Below, one piece after another: positions 19,487 through 57,321 of a stretch of 64,000 nt of DNA (positions are counted from its first letter, which is position 1; the number at the start of each line of letters is the position of its first letter). The notes below the pieces were generated by a model. That model ran no database searches and was not told where the DNA came from. It worked only from the letters and a program-made list of their open reading frames with translations. The stretch covers positions 32,224 to 96,223 of the forward strand of contig JAFGGO010000108.1 of NCBI GenBank assembly GCA_016930515.1, read 5' to 3'. A program made the translations under genes and the position numbers. The stretch is from Promethearchaeota archaeon. GTDB taxonomy: Archaea; Asgardarchaeota; Lokiarchaeia; Sigyniarchaeales; SOKP01.

Positions 19487-21934
19487 ATGAAATTAGGTCA
19501 TAACTATCATAATCTACGGTACCCAGTACCTTCTGAACAATCAGCCGTTTTTTACCAAGAACATATTGAACGATTGAGAGAGAACCATCTGAATACTAAA
19601 AATACAGCTTCTATTGATAGGTTACGGATCGAGACACGTGTGATGAAAGATACAGAAGGTGAACCAATGGCAATCCGCAGGGCCAAGGTCTTTGCTAGGA
19701 TCTGTCGGGAGATGCCAATTGAGATCTGGCCAGATGAACTAATTTTCGGTCATACGGGCGTGCGTCCTCTTTGTCGGGATGTGATTCCCGATGACTGCCC
19801 GGTCCTCCTGAAAGGACAGCGTTTAACGTCCCTCATGGTGGATACAATTGAATTTGAATTAAAAGATTTTGATCCCGCCGACCAGAAGGAATTAATCGAG
19901 GAAATCGCTCCGTATTGGAAGGGAAATGGTGATTGGGAGAGAACTCATGCAGGTAGCAATTTCCAGGCTTTACCGGATTATTTAAAAGATCTTCTCTTCG
20001 AGGATACATGCACCTTTCCCCTGAAACAATCATTAATATACACGCCTTTTTTCATTTCGGGAGGACATTACGGGCATAATTCAATCTCTTACCCTGAGGT
20101 TCTAAAAAAAGGACTCTTAGGTATCAAGAAAGAAGTTGAAGCGAAGTTTAAAACGACAATGGAAAGCGATAATGGTTCAAGAACTTTTTTAAAAGCGGTT
20201 ATCTTAGCCTTGGAAGCGTCCATTGATGTAGGCAAGAGGTTCGCGGATAAAGCAAGGGAAATTGCCAAGAAGATAGAAGATCCCGTACGTAAATCTGAAC
20301 TCGAAAAAATTGCAACGATTTGCGACACTGTTCCTGCTTATCCCGCCCGAACATTTCATGAGGCACTACAATCAATTTTTATGACCCAAGTCCTTCTCAA
20401 TTGGGAATCGCCAATGATTCTTTCACAGACTACAGGGAGGATCGATCAATACCTGCTCCGATACTTTGAAGAAGATATGCAACATGGGATTCTCACGGTT
20501 GATATTGCTCAGGAACTGTTGGACTGTTATCTAATAAAGTTAAATCATATCAACCGAGGGAACCATCTTGCAGTGGGGGGATACAAAGCTAATGGCCGTG
20601 ATGGCACGAATATGCTTTCCTACATGTTGATCGAGGCCATGAAACACGTCCGTCTTGCGCATCCTTTTATAAGCGTGCTTCTCCACGCTCGAACGCCCCA
20701 AAAGTTGCTGATTAAAGCGGCGGAGTTATCTGCTCTCGGAACGGGGCATCCTGTTTTTCTCAATGCTGATACCTTAACTACAATGATGTTGGCACGTGGG
20801 AATATAGGGGGCTTTCCTATCACCCTAGAGCTTGCTCGAACCGCCACACCTGTCGGTTGCTACGAACCAGTCATCATGGGTCTGGATTCAGGATATATGT
20901 ACGGTGGTTATTTCAATTTAGCAGCCATTTGCGAATTAGTTCTCACAAATGGATACAGCAGGCGCTATGGAAAAAACATAGGGCTACAAACTGGTGATCC
21001 TCGGAAATTCACCTCTTTTAAAGAATTTAAAGAAGCTTACAATGCTCAACTTTCATTCATGATAAAGAATTTTTCTTCTGCAACTGATATTTTTGAACGA
21101 GTGTTATCCAATCTCCTGCCAACACCATTCGAATCGAGTCTCATTAAAGATTGTATTTCTAAAGGGAAATCACGTGAAGACGGAGGTGCGCGGTTTAATT
21201 TCAGGACGATAATCGGGGCTGGATCGAGTGATACTGGAGATTCACTAACTGCCATATCTAAACTCATTTTTGATGAGAAGAAAATTACAATGGATGAATT
21301 ATGTCGTGCATTAGAAGCCAATTTTGAAGGATATGAAAATATCCGGAATATTTTATGCGCTGTACCCAAGTTTGGAAATGATGATGATATTGCCGATGAA
21401 CAGGTTGCGTGGGTTAGTCACGTGTTCGCTAAAGAGGTATCTAAGCAAAAAAATACCCGAGGCGGTCACGCCGTTCCTATGGGTGCCCCCTTGCAGTATT
21501 ACATGTTTGGAGGATGGGTTGTAGGGGCCTTACCCTCGGGAAGAAAAGCATGGGAACCATTATCGGACGCTTGGTCACTATGTGCAGGAAGCGATGTTAA
21601 TGGTCCAACGGCCGTTTTTAATAGCATGGGAAAAGTTAACAATGCAGAACTTTCAGCTGGCGTCACTCTCAATCTGCGTTTAGATCCTTCGATTTTCAGA
21701 AGCGATGATGGCATTCTAAGATTCGTTAACTTTATTAGAGCCTTTGTTGATCAAGGAATCTTCCAAGTTCAGTTCAACATCATAGATACAAAAACGCTCC
21801 GAGAGGCGCAAAAAGAGCCGGAAAAATATAGAGATTTAATCGTAAAAGTTGCAGGGTATAGCGCTTATTTTACGCAGCTTATTAAATCATTACAGGATGG
21901 AGTCATTACTAGAACGGAACATAAACTTTTATAA
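19487..21934 (+). CDS. Glycyl radical enzyme 1 (non-PFL, eliminase-like; substrate unknown)
   Basis: Cys loop VGCYEP; Gly loop VKVAGYSAYF. Confidence 0.9.
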   Translation: MKLGHNYHNLRYPVPSEQSAVFYQEHIERLRENHLNTKNTASIDRLRIETRVMKDTEGEPMAIRRAKVFARICREMPIEIWPDELIFGHTGVRPLCRDVIPDDCPVLLKGQRLTSLMVDTIEFELKDFDPADQKELIEEIAPYWKGNGDWERTHAGSNFQALPDYLKDLLFEDTCTFPLKQSLIYTPFFISGGHYGHNSISYPEVLKKGLLGIKKEVEAKFKTTMESDNGSRTFLKAVILALEASIDVGKRFADKAREIAKKIEDPVRKSELEKIATICDTVPAYPARTFHEALQSIFMTQVLLNWESPMILSQTTGRIDQYLLRYFEEDMQHGILTVDIAQELLDCYLIKLNHINRGNHLAVGGYKANGRDGTNMLSYMLIEAMKHVRLAHPFISVLLHARTPQKLLIKAAELSALGTGHPVFLNADTLTTMMLARGNIGGFPITLELARTATPVGCYEPVIMGLDSGYMYGGYFNLAAICELVLTNGYSRRYGKNIGLQTGDPRKFTSFKEFKEAYNAQLSFMIKNFSSATDIFERVLSNLLPTPFESSLIKDCISKGKSREDGGARFNFRTIIGAGSSDTGDSLTAISKLIFDEKKITMDELCRALEANFEGYENIRNILCAVPKFGNDDDIADEQVAWVSHVFAKEVSKQKNTRGGHAVPMGAPLQYYMFGGWVVGALPSGRKAWEPLSDAWSLCAGSDVNGPTAVFNSMGKVNNAELSAGVTLNLRLDPSIFRSDDGILRFVNFIRAFVDQGIFQVQFNIIDTKTLREAQKEPEKYRDLIVKVAGYSAYFTQLIKSLQDGVITRTEHKLL

Positions 21935-21959
21935 TAAATCCATTAAAAAAGTAAAAAAA

Positions 21960-24470
21960 ATGATAGATTTGAACGAAAAATTTATAACAATTCAACCTAC
22001 AGCACGCATGAAAAGGTTAAGAGCATTTTATATTGAAAATTCAAAACAAGATGAACCATTTTACACTATATATTTCGATCGTGCAATCGCTAGAGTCATG
22101 AAGGAGACCGAAGGAGAACCAATGGTTTTACATAGGGCCAAGGCTTTTGCCGCAGCAGTAGAAGCTATACCGGTCGAAATATTTCCTGATGAACCTTTTG
22201 TGGGATGGATTGGAGGTAGTCCTACTGCCATTCCATTGGGCGCAGAACAACTGGGAGCTAGATTAGAAATCGAGCTGGATTTCTATAAAAACATGAATGC
22301 TGAAGATCGGAATATTGTACGAGAGGAAATTATTCCTTATTGGAAGGGTAGTGGTGATTGGAAACGCCATTGGTTCCATCAAAATTATCAGATGCTTCCC
22401 CCTGAGACGCGTAATCTTCTCTACGGAGATCCCGATCCAGACCTTAAAAAAATAGGAATTATAACGCGATCAAGACCACCAGCTTTACCTCGGATCGAGA
22501 TGAATGAAGTTTCGGATGAGACGGATGGTTTGGGGCGGGGATTTATCAGCGATGGCATGAATCGCCACCATATAGGTCATTGTTCCTATGGATACAAAAA
22601 GGTGCTGAAAAAAGGTTTTCTTGGTATTAAAAAGGATGCAGAGGATCGACTGGCTCGAATTGATTGGACCAATACAGAAGATCAAAAAAAGGTACCTTTC
22701 CTCAAGAGCGTGATAATTGCAATGGATGCTGCTGCGAAAGTTGGGACGAAATTTGCAGTTAGCGCTCGAAAAACAGCCGAAAAAGAAACGGAACTGGGCC
22801 GTAAAGGCGAATTGGAAAAGATCGCCCGGATATGTGAGCGTGTTCCTGCTCTTCCTGCTCGTACTTTTCATGAAGCCCTCCAATCTGTCTGGTTTACTCA
22901 AATTTTAAATTGGTGTGAAGTTCCAATAATTTTTGCTGTATCTCCAGGCAAAGTTGATCAATACCTTTATCCGTTTTACGAAAAAGATATTCGTGAAGGT
23001 AATCTAACAAAGCAGGACGCCCAGGAATTAATTGATTGCTGGCTAATGAGATTCACGCAGGGGGTGTCGCCGTTCATTCCCCAATCCGGTGCCGCCTATC
23101 ACATGGATGTCGGGGGTTTAAAAGAAGATGGGAGCGATGCTACCAACGAATTATCATACATGTTTATTGAAGCCATGATCCACACGCGAATGGTCGAACC
23201 AAATTTCGGAGTTTTTGTCCATAGTAAAACTCCAGAGGATTTGTTGATTAAGGCCTGTCAACTCTGCGTTCTAGGAACAGGACATCCCATGTTTCTAAAT
23301 AATGATGTTTTTGTCGAAAACTTTTTAGCACGTGGGACTTTGGGCGGACCTTCCGTTCCGCTGGAGTTAGCTCGAACTAGTGGTGCTATTGGTTGTAATG
23401 AACCTCATGTGACAAATTACGACTCTGAATTCAATGTGGGGCCATTTCTCCTCTTACCACATGTTTTAGAATTGACCCTATCGAATGGATGGAGTCGAAT
23501 CCATAATAAATATATGGGTCTGCGTACCGGAGATCCAAGGGAATTCAAAACTTTTGCTGACCTACAAGACGCTTACTTAAAACAATTGGCGTATTTAACA
23601 ACACAATGCGAGATCGCTAATAATAATTCTGAAATTACTCTAGCCCAGCGATATCCTACAATTTACGCATCTGCGTTAATTGAAGATTGCATCGAAAATG
23701 GGCTTACACGAGAAGAGGGTGGGGCACGGTTTAATTTTGGTCCTTGTATCGCCACAGCTGGTGCAACGGATGTTGGAGACTCCCTTGCTGTAATCAAAAT
23801 GCTAGTATACGATAAGCAGGAGATAACAATGTCTGAACTTCTCGACGCCTTAAAGACTAATTTTGAAGAACACAATTCATTGCGTGAAAAACTACTTCAG
23901 GTGCCTAAGTTTGGAAACGATATAGATTATGTCGACGAGATTGTCTCTTGGGTCATGAAAACCTATTGCGATGAAATCATCAAACACGAAAACACGCGTG
24001 GGGGACATTTAGTTCCTTATCAAAATCCTCTTGCTTGGTATGTGAGTACCGGCAGATCTGTCGGAGCTCTTCCTTCGGGAAGAAAAGCTGGAGAACCACT
24101 TTCAGACGGGATCTCCCCTACACGCGGGGTGGATGTCAGTGGACCCACGGCCGTGTTTAATTCCGTCAGTAAAATTGATAACATCTCAATTTTTTTTGGA
24201 GAGACCCTAAACATGCGGCTCAACATGGATGTTTTCGCAAATGACGCAGGAATCCATAGGCTGGCTACAATGATTAGGACCTTTGTCGATCTTAAGATTC
24301 ATCATTGCCAATTTAATCTTGTCTCTTCAGAAATTCTAAGGAAAGCACAGCAGAATCCAAGTGAATATCAAGATCTTACAGTACGAGTGGCTGGTTATGT
24401 TGCTTACTTCACTAGGTTAAGCAAGTCAGTACAAGACAGCATAATCGCCCGTACAGAGCATGGTGGTTAA
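21960..24470 (+). CDS. Glycyl radical enzyme 2 (paralog of GRE1; substrate unknown)
   Basis: Cys loop IGCNEP; Gly loop VRVAGYVAYF. Start set at ATG 21960, after the GRE1 stop. Confidence 0.9.
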   Translation: MIDLNEKFITIQPTARMKRLRAFYIENSKQDEPFYTIYFDRAIARVMKETEGEPMVLHRAKAFAAAVEAIPVEIFPDEPFVGWIGGSPTAIPLGAEQLGARLEIELDFYKNMNAEDRNIVREEIIPYWKGSGDWKRHWFHQNYQMLPPETRNLLYGDPDPDLKKIGIITRSRPPALPRIEMNEVSDETDGLGRGFISDGMNRHHIGHCSYGYKKVLKKGFLGIKKDAEDRLARIDWTNTEDQKKVPFLKSVIIAMDAAAKVGTKFAVSARKTAEKETELGRKGELEKIARICERVPALPARTFHEALQSVWFTQILNWCEVPIIFAVSPGKVDQYLYPFYEKDIREGNLTKQDAQELIDCWLMRFTQGVSPFIPQSGAAYHMDVGGLKEDGSDATNELSYMFIEAMIHTRMVEPNFGVFVHSKTPEDLLIKACQLCVLGTGHPMFLNNDVFVENFLARGTLGGPSVPLELARTSGAIGCNEPHVTNYDSEFNVGPFLLLPHVLELTLSNGWSRIHNKYMGLRTGDPREFKTFADLQDAYLKQLAYLTTQCEIANNNSEITLAQRYPTIYASALIEDCIENGLTREEGGARFNFGPCIATAGATDVGDSLAVIKMLVYDKQEITMSELLDALKTNFEEHNSLREKLLQVPKFGNDIDYVDEIVSWVMKTYCDEIIKHENTRGGHLVPYQNPLAWYVSTGRSVGALPSGRKAGEPLSDGISPTRGVDVSGPTAVFNSVSKIDNISIFFGETLNMRLNMDVFANDAGIHRLATMIRTFVDLKIHHCQFNLVSSEILRKAQQNPSEYQDLTVRVAGYVAYFTRLSKSVQDSIIARTEHGG

Positions 24471-30328: not shown

Positions 30329-31840
30329 TCATTTATTTTTTTTCATTGCTACCTTTTTAACATCTTTTGTGATCTTTTCACAAGCAAGTTGAGCAGAAAT
30401 GATGGAAACTGGGACTCCCACACCGGGATGAGTATAATGTCCGGCGTAATACAGGTTTTTAACCTTCTTGCTTTTATGATGAGGTCTAAACACGGCAGTT
30501 TGTCGCAAGGTATGAGCTAATCCAAGTGCCGTACCCTTGAAAGCGTGAAATGTATTTTTAAAATGCTCGTGCGCAACAATCCGTTTTACAACGATAGAGT
30601 CCTTAATCGATTCTCCCGTTAGTTTTTCAACCTTTTCAAGGACTTTATCAAAATATTGCTCTCGGAAGGATTCAATATCGTCAAGATCGGGAGAAACTAA
30701 AACAAGAATGGTCATGAGCTCTCCTCCCTCAGGAATTAGGGACGGATCTGACTTTGAAGGGACGGTAATATAAATAGATGGATCTTCTGGCCATTGTGGG
30801 TTTGATCCAAAAATCTTATTGAAGTAATCGTCCCAATCGGGGTTAAAATAAAAATTATGATGCAAGAAATTGTTTAATTTCTTGTTCAACCCAAGATAAA
30901 CCAAGAACGCCGCTGGAGCAATTATTTTCTTCTTCCAATACTTCTCTTTATATGTTCTATATTTTTCCTCTATTAATTTCATTTCTCCATGTTCGTAATC
31001 TCCTGTGTTTAAAATGATGTCCGCTTGAAAATTTCCATTACTTGTTAGCAATCTCTTTCCCATTTTGTCTTTTACTTCTATTTTAAACACTTCAGTATTA
31101 AACTTGAAATCTACTCCTTTTTCTACTCCTAAATTTTTAATTGCGTCAACAATGGCTCCAAAACCCCCCAATGGATACCAAATTCCAAGGTTCATATCAC
31201 AATGAGCTAAAATAGAATAAACCGCGGGGCTAATGGGCGGGGAGGCACCAACAAAAGCTACGCTATATTGGACAATTTTTTGAGCTTTATCGCTTTTAAA
31301 ATATTTTTTTACGAACTTATCAAGTTTCGTGAGAATTTTAAGCTTTAATCCCTTAAAAATCAGCGATCTATCCAAAAAATCAAGGATATTCCAATAATCC
31401 TTATAGAGAAAATGATCGAAAACGATATCGTACATTGCTTTCGAGCGTTCGATAAATTTTCGTAATTTTTTACCTCCTTCCTTTTCGAATGTATCAAAAA
31501 GTTTGTAATTTTCGTTTATATCTGCCTTGATATCTAAAGAATCGTTTTCACCGAAATGAACTCGATAAGAGGGATCTATACGCACTGTTTTATAATAATC
31601 TTCGGGTTTTTTTCCAAAGAGGGCGAAAAAATTGTCAAACGCATCAATCATCATGTACCACGAGGGTCCCATATCAAAGACGTAACCTTTTTCTTGCCAA
31701 ACCATGCCTCGACCTCCAGGCTTGTCGTTTTTCTCGAGTACCGTGACTTCGAAGCCTTCTTTTGCTAAAATAGCTGCTGCTGATAAACCAGTAAAACCGG
31801 CTCCTATAACCATTACTTTTCTTCCTTTTATTTCTTTCAT
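30329..31840 (-). CDS. crtI: Phytoene desaturase
   Basis: GAGFTGL, FDMGPSWY, GIWYPLGG, LAHTLRQTAVFRP and THPGVGVP; directly downstream of crtB. Confidence 0.92.
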   Translation of the reverse strand: MKEIKGRKVMVIGAGFTGLSAAAILAKEGFEVTVLEKNDKPGGRGMVWQEKGYVFDMGPSWYMMIDAFDNFFALFGKKPEDYYKTVRIDPSYRVHFGENDSLDIKADINENYKLFDTFEKEGGKKLRKFIERSKAMYDIVFDHFLYKDYWNILDFLDRSLIFKGLKLKILTKLDKFVKKYFKSDKAQKIVQYSVAFVGASPPISPAVYSILAHCDMNLGIWYPLGGFGAIVDAIKNLGVEKGVDFKFNTEVFKIEVKDKMGKRLLTSNGNFQADIILNTGDYEHGEMKLIEEKYRTYKEKYWKKKIIAPAAFLVYLGLNKKLNNFLHHNFYFNPDWDDYFNKIFGSNPQWPEDPSIYITVPSKSDPSLIPEGGELMTILVLVSPDLDDIESFREQYFDKVLEKVEKLTGESIKDSIVVKRIVAHEHFKNTFHAFKGTALGLAHTLRQTAVFRPHHKSKKVKNLYYAGHYTHPGVGVPVSIISAQLACEKITKDVKKVAMKKNK

Positions 31841-31851
31841 TATGATAATAC

Positions 31852-32676
31852 CTATCTTCTAATTTTAATCGAGTTTTTTATTATTTCTAAAATTATCCTC
31901 CGTTTAGAAGGTTTAACTCTCTGATCGTACACGATAAACGGATTTTCTCTTATTTTTAACGCAGTCCATTTATACATGTCCGAAGCAGTTTTAATGGGAA
32001 TTAAATATCTTTTTGGAATGTATTTATATCCGTTTTCTGCTTCTTTTACCCATTTAAAGTAAAGATCAATTTGGTCCGAGATGAATCTTATGAACTCTTC
32101 TCTGTTTTTGGTTGTTTCTTCTCTTGTCAAATTTTTCAAATCATACCCATTTAAGGGAAGATAACGCCTTCCTAGCTTAATATCTTCTAGTATATCTCGA
32201 ATAAAATTAATGTATTGCATGGATGTACCAAGTCTTTCTGCTGCGAAATAAGATCTTTCAGGCAAATCAAGGATTTTTGCCATGAATAAACCGATAACTT
32301 CGGCAGAACCGTGAATGTATTTGAGTGTTTCGACTAAGGTATCGTAATTTTTCTTTGTAAGATCCATCTCCATTGCCCATAGAAAATCGTCGACCCAAAT
32401 ACTCTCGAATTGTTTTCTACGCATCAATTCGACGAAAGAATCGATAATAATATCGTTGCTTTTCTTCCCATTGAGGGATAGTCTATACTTGTCGCAAAAA
32501 TTTAAAAAAGCCTCCTTGTTTTGTGGAATCGCATCTACATAATTATCTGCAACTCTCACGAATCCATATAAAACGAATACATCTCTTCTCACATTCTTGG
32601 GAAAGAAAATGCTACTATTGAAATAGGTCTTGCTTCCTTCCTTGAAAATAGTATGATGAATGTGTGATATTGACAT
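31852..32676 (-). CDS. crtB: Phytoene synthase
   Basis: SKTYF, YGFVRVADNYVD, YIHGSAEVIGL and NFIRDILED...GRRYLP. Confidence 0.93.
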   Translation of the reverse strand: MSISHIHHTIFKEGSKTYFNSSIFFPKNVRRDVFVLYGFVRVADNYVDAIPQNKEAFLNFCDKYRLSLNGKKSNDIIIDSFVELMRRKQFESIWVDDFLWAMEMDLTKKNYDTLVETLKYIHGSAEVIGLFMAKILDLPERSYFAAERLGTSMQYINFIRDILEDIKLGRRYLPLNGYDLKNLTREETTKNREEFIRFISDQIDLYFKWVKEAENGYKYIPKRYLIPIKTASDMYKWTALKIRENPFIVYDQRVKPSKRRIILEIIKNSIKIRR

Positions 32677-32919
32677 GTTGTAGAATGATAAATTTCATTT
32701 ATTTTATATATTTTGCATTTAAAATATTAATAGATTTTATATATTAGTAGAGAGATAAGTTTTCCTTGGATACTATCTATTTATTCAATTATAGGTTGTG
32801 GATCTTTTTCTTCTCATTAGTTGGAACTAATTAACTTGAACTTTTATAGTATTATATAAATCTAATTTATACTTTAGGGACAAAAGATTTATAAAATAAA
32901 ATGAAATCATTTACTACAT

Positions 32920-34542
32920 ATGACCGAAATAACAAATAACGATTTTTTCTTCAATGTTGGCATTGATTCTATGGGTTTTTACACTTCAAAATATTATGTT
33001 GATCTAAGAGAATTAGCAGAAGTTCGAAATGTCGATCCAGACAAGTATTTAAGGGGGTTGTTAACCACCGAGATGAGGATTCCTGGACCTGGGGAGGATA
33101 TAGTAAGCATGGCAGTAAAAGCAGGGCACTATGCCTTACATAAAGGAAATATAAACCCTGAGGAAATCGACGCCATTTTTCTAGGCACGGAAACCATGAC
33201 TTACGCCGTTAAGTCAATTGCTAATGTTCTTTCAGAGATTTTTGGTACTACCATAAATTGCGTCACTCAAGATGTATATAACGCTTGTGCTGGAGCAACA
33301 CTTGCGGTTTTAAACGCGATAGGCTTAATAAATAATGGAATAATCAACAAGGCTTTAATTATTGGGGCTGATATTAGTCATTATAAATTAGAAAGCCCAG
33401 GAGAACCAACTCAAGGTGCGGCAGCAGCAGCAGTGGTTATCTCTAAAAATCCCCGGGTCGCCGCTTTTGGAAAGAATTTTGGAAAATATACCGCTAATAT
33501 TTACGATTTCTATAGATTACCCTATGAGGATTATCCCGTTGTATTTGGAAAATATTCGATCGATTCCTATCTTAAATTCCAACTTGGGGCATTCGACGAT
33601 TTCTTCAAAAATGCTAGAAACATTCTACCCGATTATCTGGCTTTCCACTCGCCTTTTGCGAAGTTACCTCTTAAAAACATCCAAAATCTATTATTAAATA
33701 GATGGGAAACGCTGAAAAAAATCTTGCTCGATAAACAATCGCCAAATGCCTGTCCCGTGATGATTCACGATCAAGCCTGCGATGTGATGAAAGATATGAT
33801 CGAACCAATTTTTGAAAATATGAAAGTAGATGATAAATATCAAAATATTGAATCAATGAAAATTGATTTAATCAATAGTCTCACAAACAGGTTTCTTCCG
33901 ACTCTTAATGTACCGATGTCAATTGGAAATATGTATTCAGCGTCAATTTGGGCTCAATTAATTTATCTTTTAGAGAATATTGTTAATCAAAATGACCTGA
34001 TTTATTTTGGGTCTTACGGTTCTGGAGCAACATGCATTTCTGGAATGCTAAAAGTCATGCCAAGTTTTAAACAAATCGTTGAAAAAGGTCCCAAAGTAAT
34101 GAATTTCATAGAAAACAAGGAGCGTAAAACCGTTCAAGAATACGAAGAAATGAGGGAAAAAATTGACGCGAAAAAAATTCATCATGCACGAATCGAACCC
34201 CACCCATCTCCAAAAAATTATTTCGTGGAAATTGGCGTTTGCGAGGGAGGTTGCTTGGTGTCAAAATTAGAAGGGCTTGATTTTTGCCCTCGTGGTACCA
34301 ATAAAACTCATAAAAAAAGGCTTCCAATGTACGCCGTAGTGGCAACTGATCCTACTCACGATATGAATGAGAATGAATTGTCTGCAGATGATGTTGTTCG
34401 AGTTTCTCCAGATGTAAAAAAAGGTCAAACCGTTGAATACAACATGCTTCGGGCGGGAAAAAACGAATCTGCTCATTGTGTTCAAACTGGATTTATAACT
34501 TGGATTCCGACTTATAAACCTATAAATTATCCTATAGAATAA
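32920..34542 (+). CDS. mvaS: HMG-CoA synthase with C-terminal DUF35-like extension
   Basis: GTET, NACAG, GEPTQGA, HSPF, GNMYSAS and SYGSG, plus an extra ~120 aa Cys-containing tail. Confidence 0.88.
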   Translation: MTEITNNDFFFNVGIDSMGFYTSKYYVDLRELAEVRNVDPDKYLRGLLTTEMRIPGPGEDIVSMAVKAGHYALHKGNINPEEIDAIFLGTETMTYAVKSIANVLSEIFGTTINCVTQDVYNACAGATLAVLNAIGLINNGIINKALIIGADISHYKLESPGEPTQGAAAAAVVISKNPRVAAFGKNFGKYTANIYDFYRLPYEDYPVVFGKYSIDSYLKFQLGAFDDFFKNARNILPDYLAFHSPFAKLPLKNIQNLLLNRWETLKKILLDKQSPNACPVMIHDQACDVMKDMIEPIFENMKVDDKYQNIESMKIDLINSLTNRFLPTLNVPMSIGNMYSASIWAQLIYLLENIVNQNDLIYFGSYGSGATCISGMLKVMPSFKQIVEKGPKVMNFIENKERKTVQEYEEMREKIDAKKIHHARIEPHPSPKNYFVEIGVCEGGCLVSKLEGLDFCPRGTNKTHKKRLPMYAVVATDPTHDMNENELSADDVVRVSPDVKKGQTVEYNMLRAGKNESAHCVQTGFITWIPTYKPINYPIE

Positions 34543-34611
34543 TATTTTTAAATCCAATAGGAAAATTTACATCTTTGGAATATTATCTTGAAAAGGATGA
34601 TAGTAAATCGA

Positions 34612-35715
34612 TTATAATCGTTTGAAATCTACTTTTCTTTCTTTTAACCATCCTTTCAGCGAAGAACTAATCACTATAGGTGATTTTTTAAGTTCCTCAA
34701 TAGATTTACTTCCAGTTAAAAGCATTGTAATCCTTAGTTCTCCAATGATTTTATCAATGAAGTTATCAATTGAACCTTGGCCCTCTAATGCAGCCATGAG
34801 AAAGGGTCTTGCCAAGGCTGCGTAATCTGCACCAATCCTTATCGTTTTTGCAATGTCTATTCCGTTTCTTATCCCGCCACTACCTATAATTTTTCTGTCA
34901 GTATATCCATTTGAAGCATAATTTACTTCAATAATACTCGCAGCAGTAGGAATCCCCCAGTCCCAGAATAACTCACCAAAATCCATATTAACCTTGATAT
35001 CGTGTTTTTTTGCTCTATAATATTCAACTGCAATCCAGCTTGTTCCACCCACACCTGCTACATCAATGTATTTTATTCCTATATTGAATAATTTTTTCGC
35101 TATTTCTTTGGAAATACCGCAACCTGTTTCTTTGATAACTATTGGGATATCAATTTGATCTTTTAGTTCTGCGATTTTATCAAGAGTGCCAGAGAACGCT
35201 TTATCGCCTTCTGGTTGTACTAATTCTTGGATCACGTTGAGATGTATTGCAAGAGCGTTTGCATTGATATTATTGATGATTTCTTCAATGTATTCAAATT
35301 TATCAGAATTTGCTACTTGTGCCATGCCAATATTTCCAACAATAGGGACATCGGGAGCACACTTTCTAACCGCAGAAAAGGATTCTTTCGTTTCTGGATG
35401 CCTTATTATGACTCGTTGACTTCCAACCATCATTGGTATTCGATATTTTTGGGCAGCTTTTGCTAAGGAAACATTTATTTTTTTTGTTAATTCCGTTCCA
35501 CCGGTCATTGCTCCAATTATAATTGGAGCAGACAAGGACTTGCCAAGAAATTCGCAAGATAAATTGATGTCGTCTAAATCTAATTCGGGTAAGGTATTAT
35601 GAACGAATCTCACGTGTTCGAGCCAAGTTGAATCGTGACTTTCTACATTTTCCGTACTTACCAGAACGATATGCTCGTCTTTTCTGTTTTGTATGGGTAT
35701 TTTTGAGATATCCAC
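34612..35715 (-). CDS. fni: Type 2 isopentenyl-diphosphate isomerase
   Basis: RKDEH, AMTGG, GSQR, HLN..QE..QPEGD, KETGCG and GGTSW. Confidence 0.96.
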   Translation of the reverse strand: MDISKIPIQNRKDEHIVLVSTENVESHDSTWLEHVRFVHNTLPELDLDDINLSCEFLGKSLSAPIIIGAMTGGTELTKKINVSLAKAAQKYRIPMMVGSQRVIIRHPETKESFSAVRKCAPDVPIVGNIGMAQVANSDKFEYIEEIINNINANALAIHLNVIQELVQPEGDKAFSGTLDKIAELKDQIDIPIVIKETGCGISKEIAKKLFNIGIKYIDVAGVGGTSWIAVEYYRAKKHDIKVNMDFGELFWDWGIPTAASIIEVNYASNGYTDRKIIGSGGIRNGIDIAKTIRIGADYAALARPFLMAALEGQGSIDNFIDKIIGELRITMLLTGSKSIEELKKSPIVISSSLKGWLKERKVDFKRL

Positions 35716-35819
35716 TTTAACACCATTTTAAAATCGATTTTAATAATAGAAGGTATGAAAACACCATTAATAAGTCTTTTAGGATAAATAATTTCGGAAT
35801 TAATCCTTATTTTTCCCAT

Positions 35820-36533
35820 TTATTTTAAAACTACGAAAATTCTGGTTGCGATAAAAAATACCGTTTGAATTAAAACAAACCACGGACTCTGTGGGCTTTC
35901 TCTTAGAGAGCATCTTTTAATTTTGGGAATTATCAAATAAGATATTGCAAATAGAAAAGATATTAAAAACCACGCAATATAATTTTGTATTGGGACTATC
36001 ATTGGATTGTTCGTTAGTGTCCAAGTCCAGTAGTTCAATCCAATCGCTGCTGGTTCCATGATATAATCAAATAATGTCGCAAGGATGGCAGTAAAGAGCG
36101 ATATAAAAAAAATCCTCATCTTATTGTTGAAACTCGGTTTGATTAATCGATCAAAAGCCCATTCAGAAAATAGTACCAACGAAAGAATGATTATTACCCA
36201 ATTCAAGCCAATAACGACGGGTACATTTAATATTTTAGGTCCAAGCACTTCTCCATAATAATATGGGCCAAAAAAGAGAGAAAATGCCACGCCAAGTGCT
36301 TCCAAGGTAAATGTAATAATATATGCAACGATGATCCAAAAAACAACATTCCACTTTTTGAAACACTTGTGAATGGCCCAGAGACCTGAGATCAAGATCA
36401 CGAGCGGAGTGATTAACATCATGAAAGAAAATGTATATTCCCAAAGATGGAACAATATTCCGATTCCATAAAAAATTGCAATTATTATCGTCTGGAACTT
36501 CCAGTCAGTTATTTTTATTTCTTTCTCTCTCAA
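35820..36533 (-). CDS. cruF: Carotenoid 1,2-hydratase (CruF family)
   Basis: Multi-pass protein with EALGV...FGPYYY..LGPK...VP, D..MEP and W...VPIQNYIAWF; abuts the crtD-like gene. Confidence 0.85.
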   Translation of the reverse strand: MREKEIKITDWKFQTIIIAIFYGIGILFHLWEYTFSFMMLITPLVILISGLWAIHKCFKKWNVVFWIIVAYIITFTLEALGVAFSLFFGPYYYGEVLGPKILNVPVVIGLNWVIIILSLVLFSEWAFDRLIKPSFNNKMRIFFISLFTAILATLFDYIMEPAAIGLNYWTWTLTNNPMIVPIQNYIAWFLISFLFAISYLIIPKIKRCSLRESPQSPWFVLIQTVFFIATRIFVVLK

Positions 36534-38024
36534 TCATTTTCTCCTCGAGTATTTATCCACGAGTTCAGCACAGATTTTTCCCGATAACAATACTAAAGGC
36601 ATTCCTCCTCCTGGATGGGCACTTCCTCCGCAAAAATACAAGCCTTTTATCTTAATACTCCTGTTTCTATGGCGCATGAATGCGGCTGATTTAGTGTTTG
36701 AACTTATGCCATAAAGACTACCACGGGTGGATCCAGTTCGTCTCTCTATTTCTGGTGGCGTGAGAATCCCTTCTGCAACAATATGATTTTCTATGTTAAC
36801 GCCCAATCGCTCGGATAAAAGGTTAATGGTGGCTTTTCTAGTTTTAGAGGCAAATTCGTCCCAATCTTGACCGTAATCTGCTGGCGCGTTAATGAGTACA
36901 AACCAGTTTTCGCAACCTTTTGGAGCATCCGCGGGGGTGAGTTTTGATGTAATGTTGACATAAACCGTTGGCTTTTCAGGTATGTTTTTATCCTCGAACA
37001 TAGCCTTAAATTCCGCTTCATAATTAGAGGAGAAGAATATATTATTTACGGATAATTCCTCAAATATCCTATTAATTCCCCAATAAAAAACGATACCACT
37101 CGAACTTGGTTCCAGCTTCTTATATCTTCGTGCTTTTTTCGAGTTTGGTAAATTTAGAAGTGAATCGTAAGTTGAAATGACATCTGCGTTAGAAATTACG
37201 GCATCGTAGGTCTTTTCTTCTAATACGGTTTTGATGCCAATAACCTTCCTTTTTTTTATCGTAATTCCTCCTACACTCTGATTGAAATAAAAGCGCACGC
37301 CTAGATCTTTTGCAGCTTGGTAAAGTTTTTTAGGAATTTCAAAAATACCTTCTTTAATTCCAAATCCCCCGCCTATATATTCGATAAACGGTATGATAAT
37401 CATGGTTGCGGGAGTTTGATATGGATTCGAACCGTTATAGGTTGCGTACCTATTAAAAAGCTGTACGATGCGAGGATCCTTGAAATATTTCTGGTTAATC
37501 TTGTTCAAAGTGCTAAATGGGTGGATACGAGCGAGCTGGAGGAACTTGTAAAGAAAGGAAGGTTTTAACAATCTTTTTAACTCGTGAATCGGTTGGGTTA
37601 AAAATAGGGTTCCACCGAGTTCATAAGCTTTTTTAGATTCCTTCAAATATGTTTCTAATGATTTTAGGCCATGAGGAACGATTCTTTCCAATTCTTTTCC
37701 AAATTTTTCCAGATCTGACCAGGCTTTTAGATAACTTCCATCCGATAGAAAATAAGTACAGATCTCGTTTAATTTTATAAAAGTAAGTTCTTGAATCATG
37801 TTCTTGCCCGCAGTCTTAAATAAGTCTTCAAATACCCAAGGCATTGTCACCAAGGAAGGTCCTGTATCAAATCTATAACCGTCATAGTACTCTTCAGCGG
37901 CTTTTCCCCCAGGAAACGATTGAGTCTCGTAGACATCCACTTCCCATCCCTTTCTTTTTAGATAAATCGATGCCGACAAGCCTCCTAATCCAGAACCTAC
38001 TATCGCAGCTTTATTCGAGTCCAT
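36534..38024 (-). CDS. crtD: CrtI-family desaturase, probably hydroxycarotenoid 3,4-desaturase
   Basis: GSGLGGL, FDTGPSL, FNRYATYNGSNPY, GSLYGISSN and HPGGGMPL. It is the second desaturase of the cluster and sits next to cruF. Confidence 0.75.
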   Translation of the reverse strand: MDSNKAAIVGSGLGGLSASIYLKRKGWEVDVYETQSFPGGKAAEEYYDGYRFDTGPSLVTMPWVFEDLFKTAGKNMIQELTFIKLNEICTYFLSDGSYLKAWSDLEKFGKELERIVPHGLKSLETYLKESKKAYELGGTLFLTQPIHELKRLLKPSFLYKFLQLARIHPFSTLNKINQKYFKDPRIVQLFNRYATYNGSNPYQTPATMIIIPFIEYIGGGFGIKEGIFEIPKKLYQAAKDLGVRFYFNQSVGGITIKKRKVIGIKTVLEEKTYDAVISNADVISTYDSLLNLPNSKKARRYKKLEPSSSGIVFYWGINRIFEELSVNNIFFSSNYEAEFKAMFEDKNIPEKPTVYVNITSKLTPADAPKGCENWFVLINAPADYGQDWDEFASKTRKATINLLSERLGVNIENHIVAEGILTPPEIERRTGSTRGSLYGISSNTKSAAFMRHRNRSIKIKGLYFCGGSAHPGGGMPLVLLSGKICAELVDKYSRRK

Positions 38025-38703
38025 CTCCTCCTTTAAAACTATATTTTCTGAAAAAGAAATACGTGAATAAGTAAAGAGCGATGAGTGAAAAGCTATAAAA
38101 GAAGTCTTCGATGGGTATGGTAACGATTCTGAGTCCTATTATTGCCTCCTCATTGTATATCACTATGGGTAAACCAGTAAAAATACCGTTGAAGATTAAA
38201 AAAGGAATATAGCTCAAGAATAATGCTATAATTGTCCAACTAGATTGGAAATTTCTGAACTTCAATGTGCTTATCAATAGCATTGTGATAAAAAACATGA
38301 TTCCAATGATGATCGTATATCCTTTATTAAGAAAAAATAAAAGGGGGGTAAAACCTATTGAGCCGATACAGATAAGAATATATCTGGAATATTCAAGTAT
38401 TTTTTCTTTAAAATACGCACGAACGCACTCGTAAATAAAAATGGTTGCGTAGGGGACCGCTATAAAAAAAAACCACTCTCCTATTGGAAGATTAAATAAC
38501 TTCAATGTTCCTGCGTATTGTTCTGAAAACGACCAATGACCTAACTCCGTCACGACCATGTCCCAAATTATGAAGCCAGTACTAACCACCAAAATGCTCA
38601 AAAATAATGCAGGCCACCTGCGCCAAAAAGCAACTTTCTTATCAAAAGATAAAAGAAAGGGCGCTATAATAACAAAAAAATTTAACCAGAAATATAGAGA
38701 CAT
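38011..38703 (-). CDS. crtY: Membrane-type lycopene beta-cyclase (fused CrtYc/Yd)
   Basis: Two hydrophobic repeats with PIGEWFFF and PIEDFFY motifs; overlaps the crtD start by 14 nt. Confidence 0.85.
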   Translation of the reverse strand: MSLYFWLNFFVIIAPFLLSFDKKVAFWRRWPALFLSILVVSTGFIIWDMVVTELGHWSFSEQYAGTLKLFNLPIGEWFFFIAVPYATIFIYECVRAYFKEKILEYSRYILICIGSIGFTPLLFFLNKGYTIIIGIMFFITMLLISTLKFRNFQSSWTIIALFLSYIPFLIFNGIFTGLPIVIYNEEAIIGLRIVTIPIEDFFYSFSLIALYLFTYFFFRKYSFKGGDGLE

Positions 38704-52294: not shown

Positions 52295-53722
52295 ATGTCG
52301 GAGAAGAAACATAGTGTAGTTGTGATGAAATTCGGTGGATCCTGCTTACAAGACGCCAAATCTTTCGAGCAAACTACCCATAACATCAATCTCTATAAAC
52401 AAAACAATAAGATTATCATTGTCGCCTCTGCCATTAAGGGAATTACCGATAAATTAATAAATTTTTACCACCGATCTTGTGACGAACAACCAGAATGCGA
52501 AAGCATCTTAGAGGATCTATTTATAACTCATCAGAGCGTGATTAAAGAGATTATCAATGATAAAAAACCTGAATATAAATACGCAATCGATTTCCTTCAA
52601 AATAACATGGAAGAACTAACTCAATTAGGCCGGGTTATTGGATTGATTCGACCAAGTGTGGACATTCAAGATATTATCGTATCGTATGGAGAAAAACTGA
52701 GTACTTTCATCGTCACCCAATATCTTAACTCGATTGGATATAAGTCTGAGTTCGTATCTTCTGACGAAATAATACGTACTGATGATAATTTCGGACGTGC
52801 TTTACCCATACTTGATGAGACTGAACTATTAGTTAGAGATAGGGTTGGGCCTATTCTTGAATCAAGCGATAACATAATTGTATGTGTTACAGGTTTTTAT
52901 GGATCCACCAAAGATAAAAAAATTACCACTTTAGGTAGGGGTGGGTCGGATCTGACCGCTGCTATAATGGCTTATTGCTTTCAACCCACCTACAATTGTA
53001 AAGTGATTTATTGGAAGGATGTGAATGGTTTTTTGAACGCTGATCCACGAATAGCACACAAGACAGCACTTTTGAAAAATATAAGCTATCTCGAAGCCAA
53101 GGAATTGGCGTTCTTTGGATCTAAGGTACTCCACCCAGTCTGCTTGGATGTAAACGAAAAGAGGGAAATACCTTCGGAAATAAGACCTTTTGAGGATCCT
53201 GAATCAAACGAATTTACTATCATTACTAAGGAGATCGTGAAGGACGACAAGATCATCAAGGCTATCACTTCCATCCAGAAAATCTCGATGGTAACTATAG
53301 CCAGTGGCACGATGGTCTCCTTACCAGGAACTGTTTCGAAATTATTCTCTCTCTTAGGTGATAATAATGTCAACATCATTTTTATCTCCCAAAGTTCTTC
53401 TGAAAACAATATTACATTTGGTATTGATTACGAAGATGCCATGAAAGTCAGTTTCTTGCTAAGAAACTCGTCTTTATTCGGGAAGCAGTGGTTTAACATC
53501 AAGATAGATCACGAAATATCGCTTATCGCGGTTATTGGTGCTGGCATGCTTCACACGCCAGGAGTTGCGGGAAAGATCTTTTCCACACTTGGAGAAAACA
53601 ATGTTAATGTGATGGCGATCGCTCAAGGTTCTTCTGAATTAAATATAACTATAATTATAGAGCGCAAGGATTGTACAAAAGCAATTAATGTTCTCTATGA
53701 CGCCTTTGTAAATAATAGTTAG
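52295..53722 (+). CDS. lysC: Aspartate kinase with two ACT domains
   Basis: VMKFGGS, TTLGRGGSD, ADPR, EL..FG.KVLHP and ACT repeats. Confidence 0.93.
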   Translation: MSEKKHSVVVMKFGGSCLQDAKSFEQTTHNINLYKQNNKIIIVASAIKGITDKLINFYHRSCDEQPECESILEDLFITHQSVIKEIINDKKPEYKYAIDFLQNNMEELTQLGRVIGLIRPSVDIQDIIVSYGEKLSTFIVTQYLNSIGYKSEFVSSDEIIRTDDNFGRALPILDETELLVRDRVGPILESSDNIIVCVTGFYGSTKDKKITTLGRGGSDLTAAIMAYCFQPTYNCKVIYWKDVNGFLNADPRIAHKTALLKNISYLEAKELAFFGSKVLHPVCLDVNEKREIPSEIRPFEDPESNEFTIITKEIVKDDKIIKAITSIQKISMVTIASGTMVSLPGTVSKLFSLLGDNNVNIIFISQSSSENNITFGIDYEDAMKVSFLLRNSSLFGKQWFNIKIDHEISLIAVIGAGMLHTPGVAGKIFSTLGENNVNVMAIAQGSSELNITIIIERKDCTKAINVLYDAFVNNS

Positions 53723-53859
53723 AATATGTTCAAAAAATTTTTTCAATTAAACTTTCTTTTAATTTTAAAAGCGTCAGTATCACGAAGTTATCCTATATGA
53801 ATTAGAGAGTTAATTTTTAGTTATTTTCTTTAGATATTTCAAAAAAGAAAAAAAAGTAT

Positions 53860-54606
53860 TTACTTACTTTTTATTTTGCATGTTTTTTTAAAGATTAAAA
53901 CCACGGATATAGTACCAGCAAGAGCTATGATTAGATATGGGTTATATCCTGGAACGAGTCGTTCAATTCCAAAATCGATGGTTGTAGATTCAAATAACAT
54001 GGTCCAAACAACCCCACTTGCCGCATTAATTACTGTTGAATTGGTTATGATGCCTCTTGAGTCTCTTTCTAATATTGTGGTATAACTAAGTCTTGCTGCG
54101 GCAGCAGCATAGAAACCATCACCATAAGTTACGATTAAAACATTATCATTGACAGTATAATTATTGAATCCAACTTGTTTGTAACTCTCGCCAACATTTA
54201 TAAGGTTAAAACTAAGGGGAATCATGCCGAACAAACCAAAACGATTGATTATCGTATTATTCGATATAATTAATTCACCTGAACTTAGATTGTGGCCAAA
54301 AATCGGAGTACTTGAATTGAACAATATGTAAAGCGATTCTCCAGATGTACGATTCAAGATCTCTGCTTTAGCGGTTATATATGTCGTTTCTATTTGAGCT
54401 ATAGCCCCATCGAAAGTTAATACGAGTTGTTGTCCAATATATAGTGTATTTGATGATGTTATATTGTATGTTATCGTATCTCCTGGTGAAGCTAGAATGC
54501 TAATCCCATTATTCAACTCGATAGTTGCCCGGGTTGAGGGTACCAAAAAAAAACCTATAAAAAAGCATGCAACTAGAATTCCACCAAATTTTAAACTTTT
54601 TTTCAT
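53860..54606 (-). CDS. Secreted surface protein with Loki-CTERM-like anchor
   Basis: Signal peptide from MKKSL; C-terminal VPGY + TM + basic tail. Confidence 0.8.
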   Translation of the reverse strand: MKKSLKFGGILVACFFIGFFLVPSTRATIELNNGISILASPGDTITYNITSSNTLYIGQQLVLTFDGAIAQIETTYITAKAEILNRTSGESLYILFNSSTPIFGHNLSSGELIISNNTIINRFGLFGMIPLSFNLINVGESYKQVGFNNYTVNDNVLIVTYGDGFYAAAAARLSYTTILERDSRGIITNSTVINAASGVVWTMLFESTTIDFGIERLVPGYNPYLIIALAGTISVVLIFKKTCKIKSK

Positions 54607-54762
54607 GTCAAATCCTTTAAAAAAATATAATCTAACTATTTGCATAAATGATCAATAGTTATTATGTATTTCATCAAAATGATCTTGAATACCAAATTAA
54701 AAATTTAATTATCGAAAAGTCATATAAAATGAGAATAAAAAAATTTCTTTTTCATAAGGTAC

Positions 54763-56072
54763 CTATTTTTTAATACCTTGAACGAAAAGGAATCCTTTTT
54801 GTCCCGCATTTCTGCCCATATCGTGTTCTTCGGCAAATGAACATTCCACAAGCCAACCCGTTTTAGCCATAAAAGAAGGGGTATTCTTAATGTTAATGCC
54901 CCATTTAATATGCTTTGAGAACGGGTCGTCAAAAAGTCCGTTAGATGCGTAAAGATCATCGTACCACCTGGTTATGTGCAACATGTCGAGAAAGATTTGA
55001 CTGGGGCGAGGAGAAATCTGCGATGCGACGGTCAAGAGATTTTTTCTTTTTTCTTTTTCAATATAATAAATAAGACCTTCTAATATCCAAAAAGTTTGTA
55101 AGTCAGTAGAAAATCCTTTTTCCATCAATTTATTAATCCACGAATCATCCGAGAGGTCCGCAGGAACGCGAGTGATATAACATAAACTCTTGAAATCTTT
55201 TAATAAAGTTTCCTTATAGTGGATTATAACTGGTAAATCAATTTCAAATAGCTTATGAAAATTTTGTCCCAATAGTTCGAATCGATACGCACGTGCGTCT
55301 AAACCGCTCCTAATAAGACAATCTGGGACTTAACGCGTGTTTCACACCAAGGTTTTAATAATTCTTCATCGATATATCTTGAACGAACGATTGGGTAATC
55401 CATTTCAGATATCCGTAATTTACTTTCAATGTAAGCACTTAAATCGCCCGCAAGTCGTTCAGCTAATGGGTCTAATATGAGAGGATTCTCTTTCTTTTCT
55501 TCAAGAGAACGATAATATGCCATTAGCCGTGCTGTAAGAGGAACGCCCTCATTAAGGTTAATTGACTTGCAATTTTTTTTAGTCTCAGAATTGTCTCTCA
55601 GAGATTTTTCTTCATTTTTATTCCCTAAATTAATGAAATCCAATACTAAATTCATTGGATCTCCTTCTGTCTGGTGTTTTAAGTGTTTTTCATATAGTTT
55701 TATGGCACCTAGGGCTTTTACAAACTCCGAAATTGTAAAAGGAATCACGCCATCGTATTCGATTAATCCTAAAACGATTTTTTCGTCATTCCTTATACCT
55801 ATAAGGTGTTCTCCTTTTTTTAGAGAAGACGCAACCAATCTGTCTTTCGTGCAAACTCGAACGATGTATTTAATATTATTGATATTAATCGGGCGAACAG
55901 TGTTTGAATCCCAAGAATCTCTAATCTGCTTGATCTCTTCTCGTGCTAGAAGATCCGAATTAGAATAAATGATGTTTAAATTTTATTGAATAAACCAATA
56001 AGAATTTAAAAAAGGCAGGACATCCCATAGATATTTCCCGATATTTTCAAATATTGACACGTTTAACGCCAT
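54763..56072 (-). pseudogene. Disrupted fusion of a profilin-like domain and an LCM-family (leucine carboxyl methyltransferase-like) SAM methyltransferase
   Basis: ATG at 56072 is in frame, through one TAA (55983-55985), with ORF 55299..55838. A 1-nt deletion at about 55304 breaks GAGLDARAYR and continues into ORF 54763..55272 (FEID, DL, EGL..Y). Confidence 0.7.
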
Positions 56073-56088
56073 TTAATTTAGTAAAAAA

Positions 56089-57321
56089 CTAAAAAGAATT
56101 AAATTTTTTATCGGCAATTTTTACTCTTATTTTTTTCCTTTCGGAAGCGCTTAGATTCTGTTCAAGGGCCTTGTTACATATCTTTTTTCCAATGACAACT
56201 TTTGGATTATCTGCCCAATTAACACCTATCAACAAGCACAAGTAATAGATGGCGGATTGAAGGAACGCAATCAGATGGCCTATATTGTGTTCTGCAGAAG
56301 TGGAGAGACTAATCTTTGCTGAAGGAACACCTTGTTCGATTAATGCTTGAAAAGTTGCGTCAGCTTGATAATCGATTATGCTATGTGCCGTTTGACCGTT
56401 AATATAATCTATGGTTGATTCTAGTGAAATATCACTAATATCGCTATCAATGGACCAAATTAATGGAACCACCGCTCCTTTAAAACCCCCTAATAAATAT
56501 TCTAAAACGGAATGTTGGCAAAGTGGTGCAGGTTGCATTGCGCCCATCATCCCCTTATTATCCTTTCCAGTGCTTTCAGATAATTCTTGGACAAATAAAC
56601 CAACTGATCCTTCAAGGTATTGAGAGTAGGGCATTGAGAAAGCTATTTTATAGTTTCTTTTATAAGTCTCGTGTAAAAATGTAGCAAACTCTACGGCGAG
56701 ATTCATATTATTGTTCATGTAGTATTCGTAGCCTTCTCTTAATCCATCCAAAAAATTTTCTATATTAATGCCTGCTATGTGAGCTGGTACGATTCCAACA
56801 TTTGAGATCGATCCTGCGAAGCGACCGGAAAGATCGGGAACATCCATGATTGGACCGCCGAACTCCTTTAAAATCTGATTTAATGTTCCCTTTGTCGATA
56901 AACCTAAAACTTTATAACCCCTCCTGGCAAATATTTCTATTGTAGAATTTACATCTAATGTTTCTCCTGCCCGAGAGATCGCTATGACTACAGAATTGTC
57001 CGGACTAGTGCTTTCAAGGCAATTTTTTAGTTCCGCTGGACGAGAACTATATATTGGAAATATTTTTTTTTTTGCCAAGTGTTCGAGAGCGAGTAGGGTT
57101 TGTATTGAACCGCCCGTTCCTAAAACGATGATATTTTTCGTGGAGTCGAGCATGAATTCAGAAGTCTTGTTAATTATTTCTGTCATGTCTATAAATGACG
57201 AAGTGTCGATAAAAAATGGAGCGTCCCATTTTTCTTTATTTGCTTTAATCTTTTGTATTGAATCTTTTAAAATTTGATTATTTATATTAGGATAATATTC
57301 TAATTCCAATCTGATTGTCAA
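56089..57321 (-). CDS. Glucose-6-phosphate isomerase-like double SIS-domain protein
   Basis: VLGTGGS, ISRAGET, GRF, QELSESTGK, QHS and P.V..GK, all divergent PGI motifs. Confidence 0.75.
   Translation of the reverse strand: MTIRLELEYYPNINNQILKDSIQKIKANKEKWDAPFFIDTSSFIDMTEIINKTSEFMLDSTKNIIVLGTGGSIQTLLALEHLAKKKIFPIYSSRPAELKNCLESTSPDNSVVIAISRAGETLDVNSTIEIFARRGYKVLGLSTKGTLNQILKEFGGPIMDVPDLSGRFAGSISNVGIVPAHIAGINIENFLDGLREGYEYYMNNNMNLAVEFATFLHETYKRNYKIAFSMPYSQYLEGSVGLFVQELSESTGKDNKGMMGAMQPAPLCQHSVLEYLLGGFKGAVVPLIWSIDSDISDISLESTIDYINGQTAHSIIDYQADATFQALIEQGVPSAKISLSTSAEHNIGHLIAFLQSAIYYLCLLIGVNWADNPKVVIGKKICNKALEQNLSASERKKIRVKIADKKFNSF

Follow-up and report, generated by a model that had tools for sequence, protein, structure and literature searches.

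A probable pseudogene in a Promethearchaeota genome belongs to an Asgard family that fuses a profilin-like domain to a methyltransferase

Profilin, a eukaryote-signature protein, is among the links between the Asgard archaea and the way in which the actin cytoskeleton originated. To our knowledge, archaeal profilin has so far been known only as a small stand-alone binder of actin monomers. The Asgard profilins of solved structure—Odin (PDB 5ZZA), Loki-1 (5YED and 5YEE), Loki-2 (5ZZB), Thor (7PBH) and Heimdall (6YRR)—are each a stand-alone protein of ∼120–145 residues, and they have been found experimentally to bind actin monomers.

The second set of described proteins that bears on the present work is the LCM-fold methyltransferases. 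Those of the OPCMT-like branch (ML2640c, PDB 2UYQ and 2CKD; Rv0731c, 6ID6; NCBIfam TIGR00027) are single-domain bacterial proteins of ∼300 residues that combine an N-terminal helical cap with a Rossmann core and have no profilin-like head. ML2640c-type enzymes are small-molecule carboxyl methyltransferases, with Thr20 and Tyr/Phe194 as their landmarks (PMC10193983). The eukaryotic leucine carboxyl methyltransferases LCMT1 and PPM1 (3IEI, 3P71 and 1RJD), together with TYW4, have the same fold and the same Pfam family, PF04072.

Here we report a gene family in which these two kinds of domain are joined. We came to it through a broken copy on the minus strand (56072..54763) of a 64,000-nucleotide stretch of contig JAFGGO010000108.1, from a Promethearchaeota archaeon (assembly GCA_016930515.1); this whole stretch is hereafter called the window. 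We consider it probable, taking the claim together with a genomic insertion and with the function that we propose for intact relatives, that the window copy is a pseudogene, inactivated recently, and that the fusion family to which it belongs is a real one of Loki/Hel-type Asgard archaea. The parts of the family are known; its domain architecture is new. It had been called undescribed in an initial annotation of this DNA, and we agree: literature searches on profilin with methyltransferase, with domain fusion and with TrmB or winged helix found no description of the fusion architecture. The features of the window copy are as follows.

55986..56072, minus strand: first 29 codons, which cover the N-terminal helix of the profilin-like domain and its first strand (translation and alignment; AF2 helix 5–18, strand 22–28)
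55983..55985, minus strand: in-frame TAA nonsense codon (codon 30) within the profilin-like domain (translation)
55671..56072, minus strand: profilin-like domain, residues 1–134 of the read-through protein (AF2, Foldseek and HMM profiles)
55536..55670, minus strand: charged, poorly conserved linker of ∼45 residues (alignment; low pLDDT in the model of an intact relative)
55305..55535, minus strand: N-terminal part of the methyltransferase, from the (F/L)TARLMAYYR motif to LLGA, ending in the glycine-rich SAM loop (Pfam LCM positions 3–92)
55299..55307, minus strand: frameshift site and the TAG at 55301–55299 (translation and alignment)
54763..55305, minus strand: C-terminal part of the methyltransferase, 180 codons and a stop, with the EID, ADL and WILEGLIYY motifs (Pfam LCM positions 94–184)

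The window copy is a single gene in three pieces, of 29, 227 and 180 codons. An ATG at 56072 opens the minus-strand frame, which meets an in-frame TAA at codon 30 (55985–55983) and then stays open for 227 codons, to a TAG at 55301–55299. A second frame (54766–55305, with its stop at 54765–54763) carries the protein onward if base 55305 is read twice. One G is absent around 55305, at the junction of GGAGCG and GTTTAGAC, and adding a G restores LLGAGLDARAYRF; here the first frame reads GCG GTT TAG, versus (G)GT TTA in the continuing frame. This layout of ATG, in-frame stop, missing base and continuing ORF had been set out in the initial annotation, and re-translation reproduced it to the base. 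The copy is indeed broken, at codon 30 and by a one-base gap at ∼55305.

The frameshift lies within the SAM-binding glycine loop (GxG), a site at which intact relatives read GAGL(D/C)(T/A)RAY in 14 of 14 cases. It also cuts the Pfam LCM profile (PF04072) exactly: residues 153–226 of the 227-codon piece correspond to profile positions 3–92, and residues 1–91 of the 180-codon piece to positions 94–184 (E 1.9e-19). Translation and this split profile bear out the earlier proposal that the frame is continuous from the profilin-like part, through a linker, into an LCM-family methyltransferase.

The 29 codons that precede the TAA align with the N-termini of intact relatives, including a conserved LPF(L/I)N motif, and therefore the TAA sits inside the ancestral coding frame. 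Intact relatives carry N, I or S in the alignment column that it occupies. After the TAA, the first in-frame ATG, GTG or TTG is a TTG at 55838, and starting there removes about half of the profilin-like domain. As translated, the domain is incomplete, cut at codon 30 and with no alternative start before residue 79. The ORFs that remain in the window encode 179 and 169 residues, and neither of them can form a complete domain. Read through both lesions, the three frames amount to 436 open codons in DNA of 34% GC, and the resulting protein aligns end to end with intact proteins of 423–433 residues at 42–47% identity. Open frames and end-to-end alignment together argue for more than chance.

Both sequence profiles and predicted fold indicate that the N-terminal ∼134 residues of the window protein are homologous to Asgard profilins. 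A profile made from fusion-type domains alone matches 5ZZA, 5YED, 5ZZB and 7PBH at E values of 5e-7 to 9e-5, and finds nothing else below E 0.2; with paralogues added to the profile, the Asgard profilin match stands at E 1e-15. The AF2 model of the window domain (pLDDT 90.2, pTM 0.84) starts with a helix, continues with seven strands among which a further helix is inserted, and ends in a long C-terminal helix. Its length and its order of secondary structures agree with those of the Asgard profilins. Its top Foldseek matches are the Odin, Loki-2 and Loki-1 profilins (E 5e-7 to 1e-6, TM 0.70–0.78). Yeast, Acanthamoeba and plant profilins follow lower down, and the best 40 matches are almost all profilins, Asgard first. 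The head of an intact relative, taken from its full-length model, superposes on 5ZZA with a TMt of 0.87 and an rmsd of 1.7 Å. The initial annotation had reached the profilin assignment by comparison with a segment of Loki profilin-1. Alignment places that segment in PDB 5YED, where it is truly present, and the region does model as a profilin fold.

The Pfam Profilin family (PF00235) gave no match above threshold on the window pieces or on a 207-residue paralogue. Such failure is normal for Asgard profilins, and we therefore do not count it against homology. A Roadblock/LC7 identity for the domain was considered and rejected: in Foldseek, structures of that kind appear only at E ∼1e-3 with rmsd values of 6–8 Å, far below the profilins.

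The read-through domain also aligns over its whole length with the intact fusion proteins and with a conserved paralogue of ∼205 residues, which itself matches the solved Asgard profilins directly (5ZZA at 6e-10, then 7PBH, 5ZZB and 5YED). This 'long profilin' is a profilin domain with a C-terminal extension of ∼80 residues and is present in nearly every genome of the family. The copy in the window's own genome (L013:1411–2031, contig C31) gives the strongest match to a PDB profilin in that genome, again to 5ZZA at 6e-10; further copies are found at L007–L012, and the gene is syntenic with TFB, a zinc-ribbon protein and argC.

Whereas the solved Asgard profilins stand alone and have experimentally established actin binding, the window-type domain forms the head of an enzyme of ∼430 residues. 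The side branch in which it falls also includes domains joined to TrmB, SIR2 and Ras partners. The window copy departs further, in the stop that truncates it and in the loss of an invariant Trp.

The C-terminal part has the LCM methyltransferase fold and belongs to the TIGR00027/OPCMT-like branch. PF04072 is matched in the window copy over positions 3–92 and 94–184, but on two frames; in intact relatives it is matched in one piece, at 103–116 bits. Two intact relatives (P0001 and P0002) score 137.4 and 143.9 bits against TIGR00027, for which the cut-off is 93.55 bits, these being scores of intact proteins and not of the broken window copy. The nearest solved structures by sequence are the mycobacterial ML2640c (E 8e-14) and Rv0731c (E 3e-12), with LCMT1 at 1e-5. 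Foldseek with an intact relative repeats this order, placing ML2640c and Rv0731c first and LCMT1, PPM1 and TYW4 second, the second tier scoring ∼1e-5 by sequence and ∼1e-9 by Foldseek. Orthology with LCMT1/PPM1 was rejected on the ground that the match is much weaker than that to the TIGR00027 branch, and nothing in the analysis pointed to a substrate of PP2A type. The greater closeness to ML2640c and Rv0731c than to LCMT1 also weakens a reading of the enzyme as one that methylates proteins.

Identity between the fusion enzyme and the OPCMT-like enzymes is only 20–24%, yet the helical cap and Rossmann core are common to both and the functional positions are conserved: Thr20, Tyr194 and the SAM contacts (Arg28, the glycine loop, Asp135, Asp164-Leu165 and Glu189-Gly190). 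In the HMM alignment to ML2640, FTARLMAYYR falls on Thr20 and Arg28, GAGLD on the glycine loop, EID on Asp135, ADL on Asp164-Leu165, and EGL(V/I)YY on Glu189-Gly190 and Tyr194. All landmark and SAM-contact residues are kept in the window copy. Its first motif reads LTARLMAYYR, with Thr and Arg in place, and its glycine loop retains its residues though split by the frameshift.

Stand-alone LCM-fold methyltransferases of ∼285 residues (for example L004:955–1809 and L005:1429–2283) occur in Asgard archaea as well. They are 44–58% identical to the fusion over the whole enzyme part and have no profilin-like head. These enzyme-only relatives are spread across the Thor, Hod, Heimdall, Borr, Jord and Sif lineages, and next come cyanobacterial and actinomycete proteins at 28–37%. 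A 442-residue protein (L006:976–2301, genome G019) carries an LCM-fold enzyme of the same kind behind a different N-terminal extension of ∼190 residues.

A word-indexed protein search gave only two fusions, and it was an exhaustive profile search, covering 1.84 billion representatives, together with a genome scan that revealed the family. The profile search found two fusion clusters at 50% identity (P0004 and the high-GC P0086) and returned the window's own 179-residue ORF as P0024. The scan, with one genome per species, found 13 loci that span both domains: 12 are uninterrupted ORFs of 411–457 residues and one contains a run of N. Intact fusions in this size range are thus present in at least 12 other species-level genomes of Loki/Hel type, which argues that the profilin–methyltransferase architecture is real. 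Intact fusions were also identified in G013, P0002, P0004 and P0086, and the first to be found were proteins of 433 and 423 residues. They also dispose of the alternative, raised with the original proposal, that relatives always encode the two parts separately.

The MAGs that hold fusion loci are titled Promethearchaeota, Promethearchaeia, Helarchaeota or 'uncultured archaeon', and one contig is probably misbinned. The 106-kb contig of L079 (DATKTP010000204.1), which bears an intact fusion, has been assigned to 'Candidatus Deferrimicrobium' but is probably a misplaced Asgard contig; an Rce1-like gene of the CAAX-protease family follows, and its start overlaps the stop of the fusion.

A maximum-likelihood tree from a quick search, on 130 columns and with 91 profilin-like domains, places the methyltransferase-fused heads in one supported group (SH-aLRT 97), which a single fusion event could explain. 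Within the head, a DGIIPF segment is conserved. An intact relative, modelled at full length, has two confident domains, joined by a linker of ∼40 residues (131–171) at pLDDT <50. No family-wide conserved neighbourhood was found around the 13 fusion loci: a DUF4184/YdjM membrane protein lies downstream in four, a class-I methyltransferase nearby in three and an overlapping Rce1-like gene in one.

Broken or divided members occur elsewhere in the family. A genome of the same genus as the window's (G004, contig C181; L063:2297–2733) contains remains of the methyltransferase, spanning its last ∼150 residues, that are more decayed than the window copy, with two TAG codons, two TAA codons and a frameshift. 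At L065:1335–2658 the head (172 residues) and the LCM enzyme (283 residues) are two ORFs in different frames that overlap by 47 nucleotides, a state that either fission or a frameshift could have produced. At L066:872–1270 the head is truncated in its last, C-terminal helix and is followed by an unrelated ACT-domain gene. Three other candidates were set aside: a 'truncated' copy in G016 simply runs off its contig, and the 'interrupted' copies at L069 and L073 are intact.

Is the window copy broken in the organism, or only in its assembly? The initial annotation had left the choice at a pseudogene or sequencing errors. Of these, the pseudogene is the better favoured and the window copy is most likely a true one. 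A Logan assembly contig of SRR13394437, the product of a different assembler, has the same gene order, identical 179- and 169-residue products with the same spacing, and the same 250-nucleotide gap after the upstream gene. That contig may share reads with the MAG, so that it excludes an assembler artefact and not a systematic read error, and it backs the TAA only indirectly, via the same short gene call. Moreover, both lesions fall in one gene of 1.3 kb, and no other broken gene was seen in the window's other ∼55 kb of coding sequence; a general error rate is therefore no explanation. Coding sequence makes up 88% of the window, the median ORF is 309 residues long, and all 13 of its other close same-strand ORF pairs are distinct, complete genes. 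The substitution that creates the TAA is not a typical homopolymer error. The protein sequence itself bears marks beyond the two lesions: a Trp invariant in 21 related domains is lost, the copy keeps 75–78% of the columns invariant in other intact copies (an intact copy keeps 78–90%), and its end branch is the longest in its clade (1.27 versus 0.42–0.81 in the quick tree). Against this stand the origin of the sequence in a MAG of 190 contigs, the position of the deletion in a short run of G (GCGG where GCGGG is expected), and the good preservation of the rest of the gene, in which every methyltransferase motif is kept. On balance we think it unlikely that the gene is intact in the organism and that the TAA and missing G are errors of sequencing or assembly.

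Two other readings would leave the locus with a working product. One is that the whole protein is made by programmed recoding, through read-through of the TAA and a −1 ribosomal frameshift. Reading base 55305 twice does restore the frame exactly, and two other members are interrupted too, one split in the linker (L065) and one truncated (L066). However, a slippery heptamer is absent at GGAGCGGTTTAG, TAA ends other genes in the window normally, and two unrelated events would be needed in a single gene; the three interrupted copies, moreover, do not share a break point, and 12 relatives have no interruption. We hold recoding to be extremely improbable. The other reading is that each piece works on its own as a small protein, the one of 179 residues comprising half a profilin, the linker and the helical cap, and the one of 169 residues a methyltransferase core. 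The two complete, overlapping ORFs at L065 indicate that the domains are separable, but the breaks in the window lie inside domains and not between them: the 179-residue ORF begins at residue 79 of the profilin fold, and the 169-residue ORF begins after the glycine loop and lacks the N-terminal cap that bears Thr20. This reading too is very unlikely. For the pseudogene that we prefer, the retention of all catalytic motifs and the otherwise open run of 436 codons indicate that inactivation was very recent, and the population may still include an intact allele. Further support for a pseudogene comes from the window's own genome (94% complete), in which no intact second copy was found, and from the decay of the family elsewhere, at L063, L065 and L066.

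The surroundings of the pseudogene have the following features.

53723..56088, unstranded: 2,366-bp segment with the broken fusion gene and a gene for a 261-residue membrane protein (comparison with 22 related genomes; segment in this genome alone)
53860..54645, minus strand: predicted membrane protein of 261 residues, with no Pfam family, co-inserted with the fusion gene (ORF list and Pfam)
52295..53722, plus strand: flanking aspartokinase-like gene with AA_kinase and ACT domains (Pfam and synteny)
56089..57321, minus strand: flanking conserved gene of 410 residues with only a weak SIS-domain match (Pfam and synteny)

The two flanking genes are convergent in 22 related genomes, with 3′ ends 15–108 bp apart (505 bp in one). 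These genomes comprise five of the same genus and seventeen others of the family (11 genera), and some carry an intact fusion elsewhere. Since the flanking genes abut in all 22, the 53723–56088 segment is best read, on gene order, as a derived insertion found in this lineage only. Searches at its ends for terminal repeats returned only A/T-rich chance matches, and no GC anomaly was found in the segment. The 261-residue membrane protein has one paralogue in the window's own genome (31% identical), and no orthologue was found in the 40 relatives searched.

We propose that the fusion gene arrived with the membrane-protein gene in this 2.4-kb insertion between two convergent housekeeping genes, and then decayed. 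The TAA at codon 30 would sever the profilin fold after its first helix and strand, and the one-base deletion would split the glycine-rich SAM-binding loop. In intact relatives, by homology, a methyl group would pass from SAM to a carboxylate held by the conserved Thr/Tyr pair. The tethered profilin-like head would either direct the enzyme to a protein partner, of which actin and its paralogues are possible examples, or gate its activity; a floppy linker suits a targeting or gating module of this kind. Our working model of the intact protein is partner-directed or partner-gated carboxyl methylation, and actin is one candidate partner. The initial annotation had suggested that the fusion could target methylation to actin or polyproline partners, both of them hypothetical, or use the profilin fold as a sensor.

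The case for actin comes from the sister branches of the profilin-like clade. Their fusion partners are TrmB winged-helix regulators (many clusters), SIR2 (P0016, 408 residues) and Ras-family GTPases, where the profilin-like domain is at the C-terminus (P0026, P0028 and P0089, 323–390 residues). An actin gene lies immediately upstream of the TrmB fusion, on the same strand, in four of the six lineages examined (G006, G007, P0010 and P0040), and this adjacency makes an actin link plausible for the clade. Around the 15 methyltransferase-fusion loci, no actin gene lies within 3 kb. The profilin-like–TrmB protein could be an actin-sensing transcription factor.

One may go further and read the side-branch domain as a portable sensor of actin state, mounted on TrmB, carboxyl methyltransferase, SIR2 deacylase or Ras-type GTPase outputs; in the methyltransferase version, the monomer pool would then be coupled to the methylation of actin itself or of a partner or metabolite bound to it. 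We regard this as doubtful. If it were true, the TrmB version would be an archaeal counterpart of G-actin-controlled transcription, and the dead window copy would be one lineage discarding that module.

A profilin fold at the head of an enzyme would mean either an unrecognised layer of actin-linked regulation or an actin tool reused for other jobs, and the sister fusions that head a transcription factor beside an actin gene point the same way. The window adds the evolutionary side: here the fusion gene appears accessory, mobile within a 2.4-kb insertion, and in the course of being lost, and the relic in a genome of the same genus, with the split and truncated copies elsewhere, is evidence that such loss is recurrent. 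Its locus records gene decay, not a working enzyme, and the intact orthologues, such as P0004 or the 435-residue ORF L067:3010–4314, are better suited to experiments.

Some further observations were made along the way. The distance from the actin gene to the TrmB fusion is 35–260 nucleotides and the fusion is ∼400–420 residues long (L057:1408–3807 in G006; L058:1591–4223 in G007; L175:1740–4263; L177/L178). A Lokiactin ORF of 413 residues in G013 (L026:1474–2715) has an aberrant tail after about residue 387, where relatives that are 97–99% identical end at ∼381 residues; the tail may reflect a frameshift near the 3′ end. Elsewhere in the window, the minus strand at 30329–38703 carries a carotenoid-type set of a phytoene/squalene synthase, two amine-oxidase-type desaturases, a 'Caroten_synth' protein and a lycopene cyclase, and the plus strand at 19487–24470 encodes two tandem pyruvate-formate-lyase-like glycyl-radical enzymes (815 and 873 residues), each with its own Gly_radical domain.
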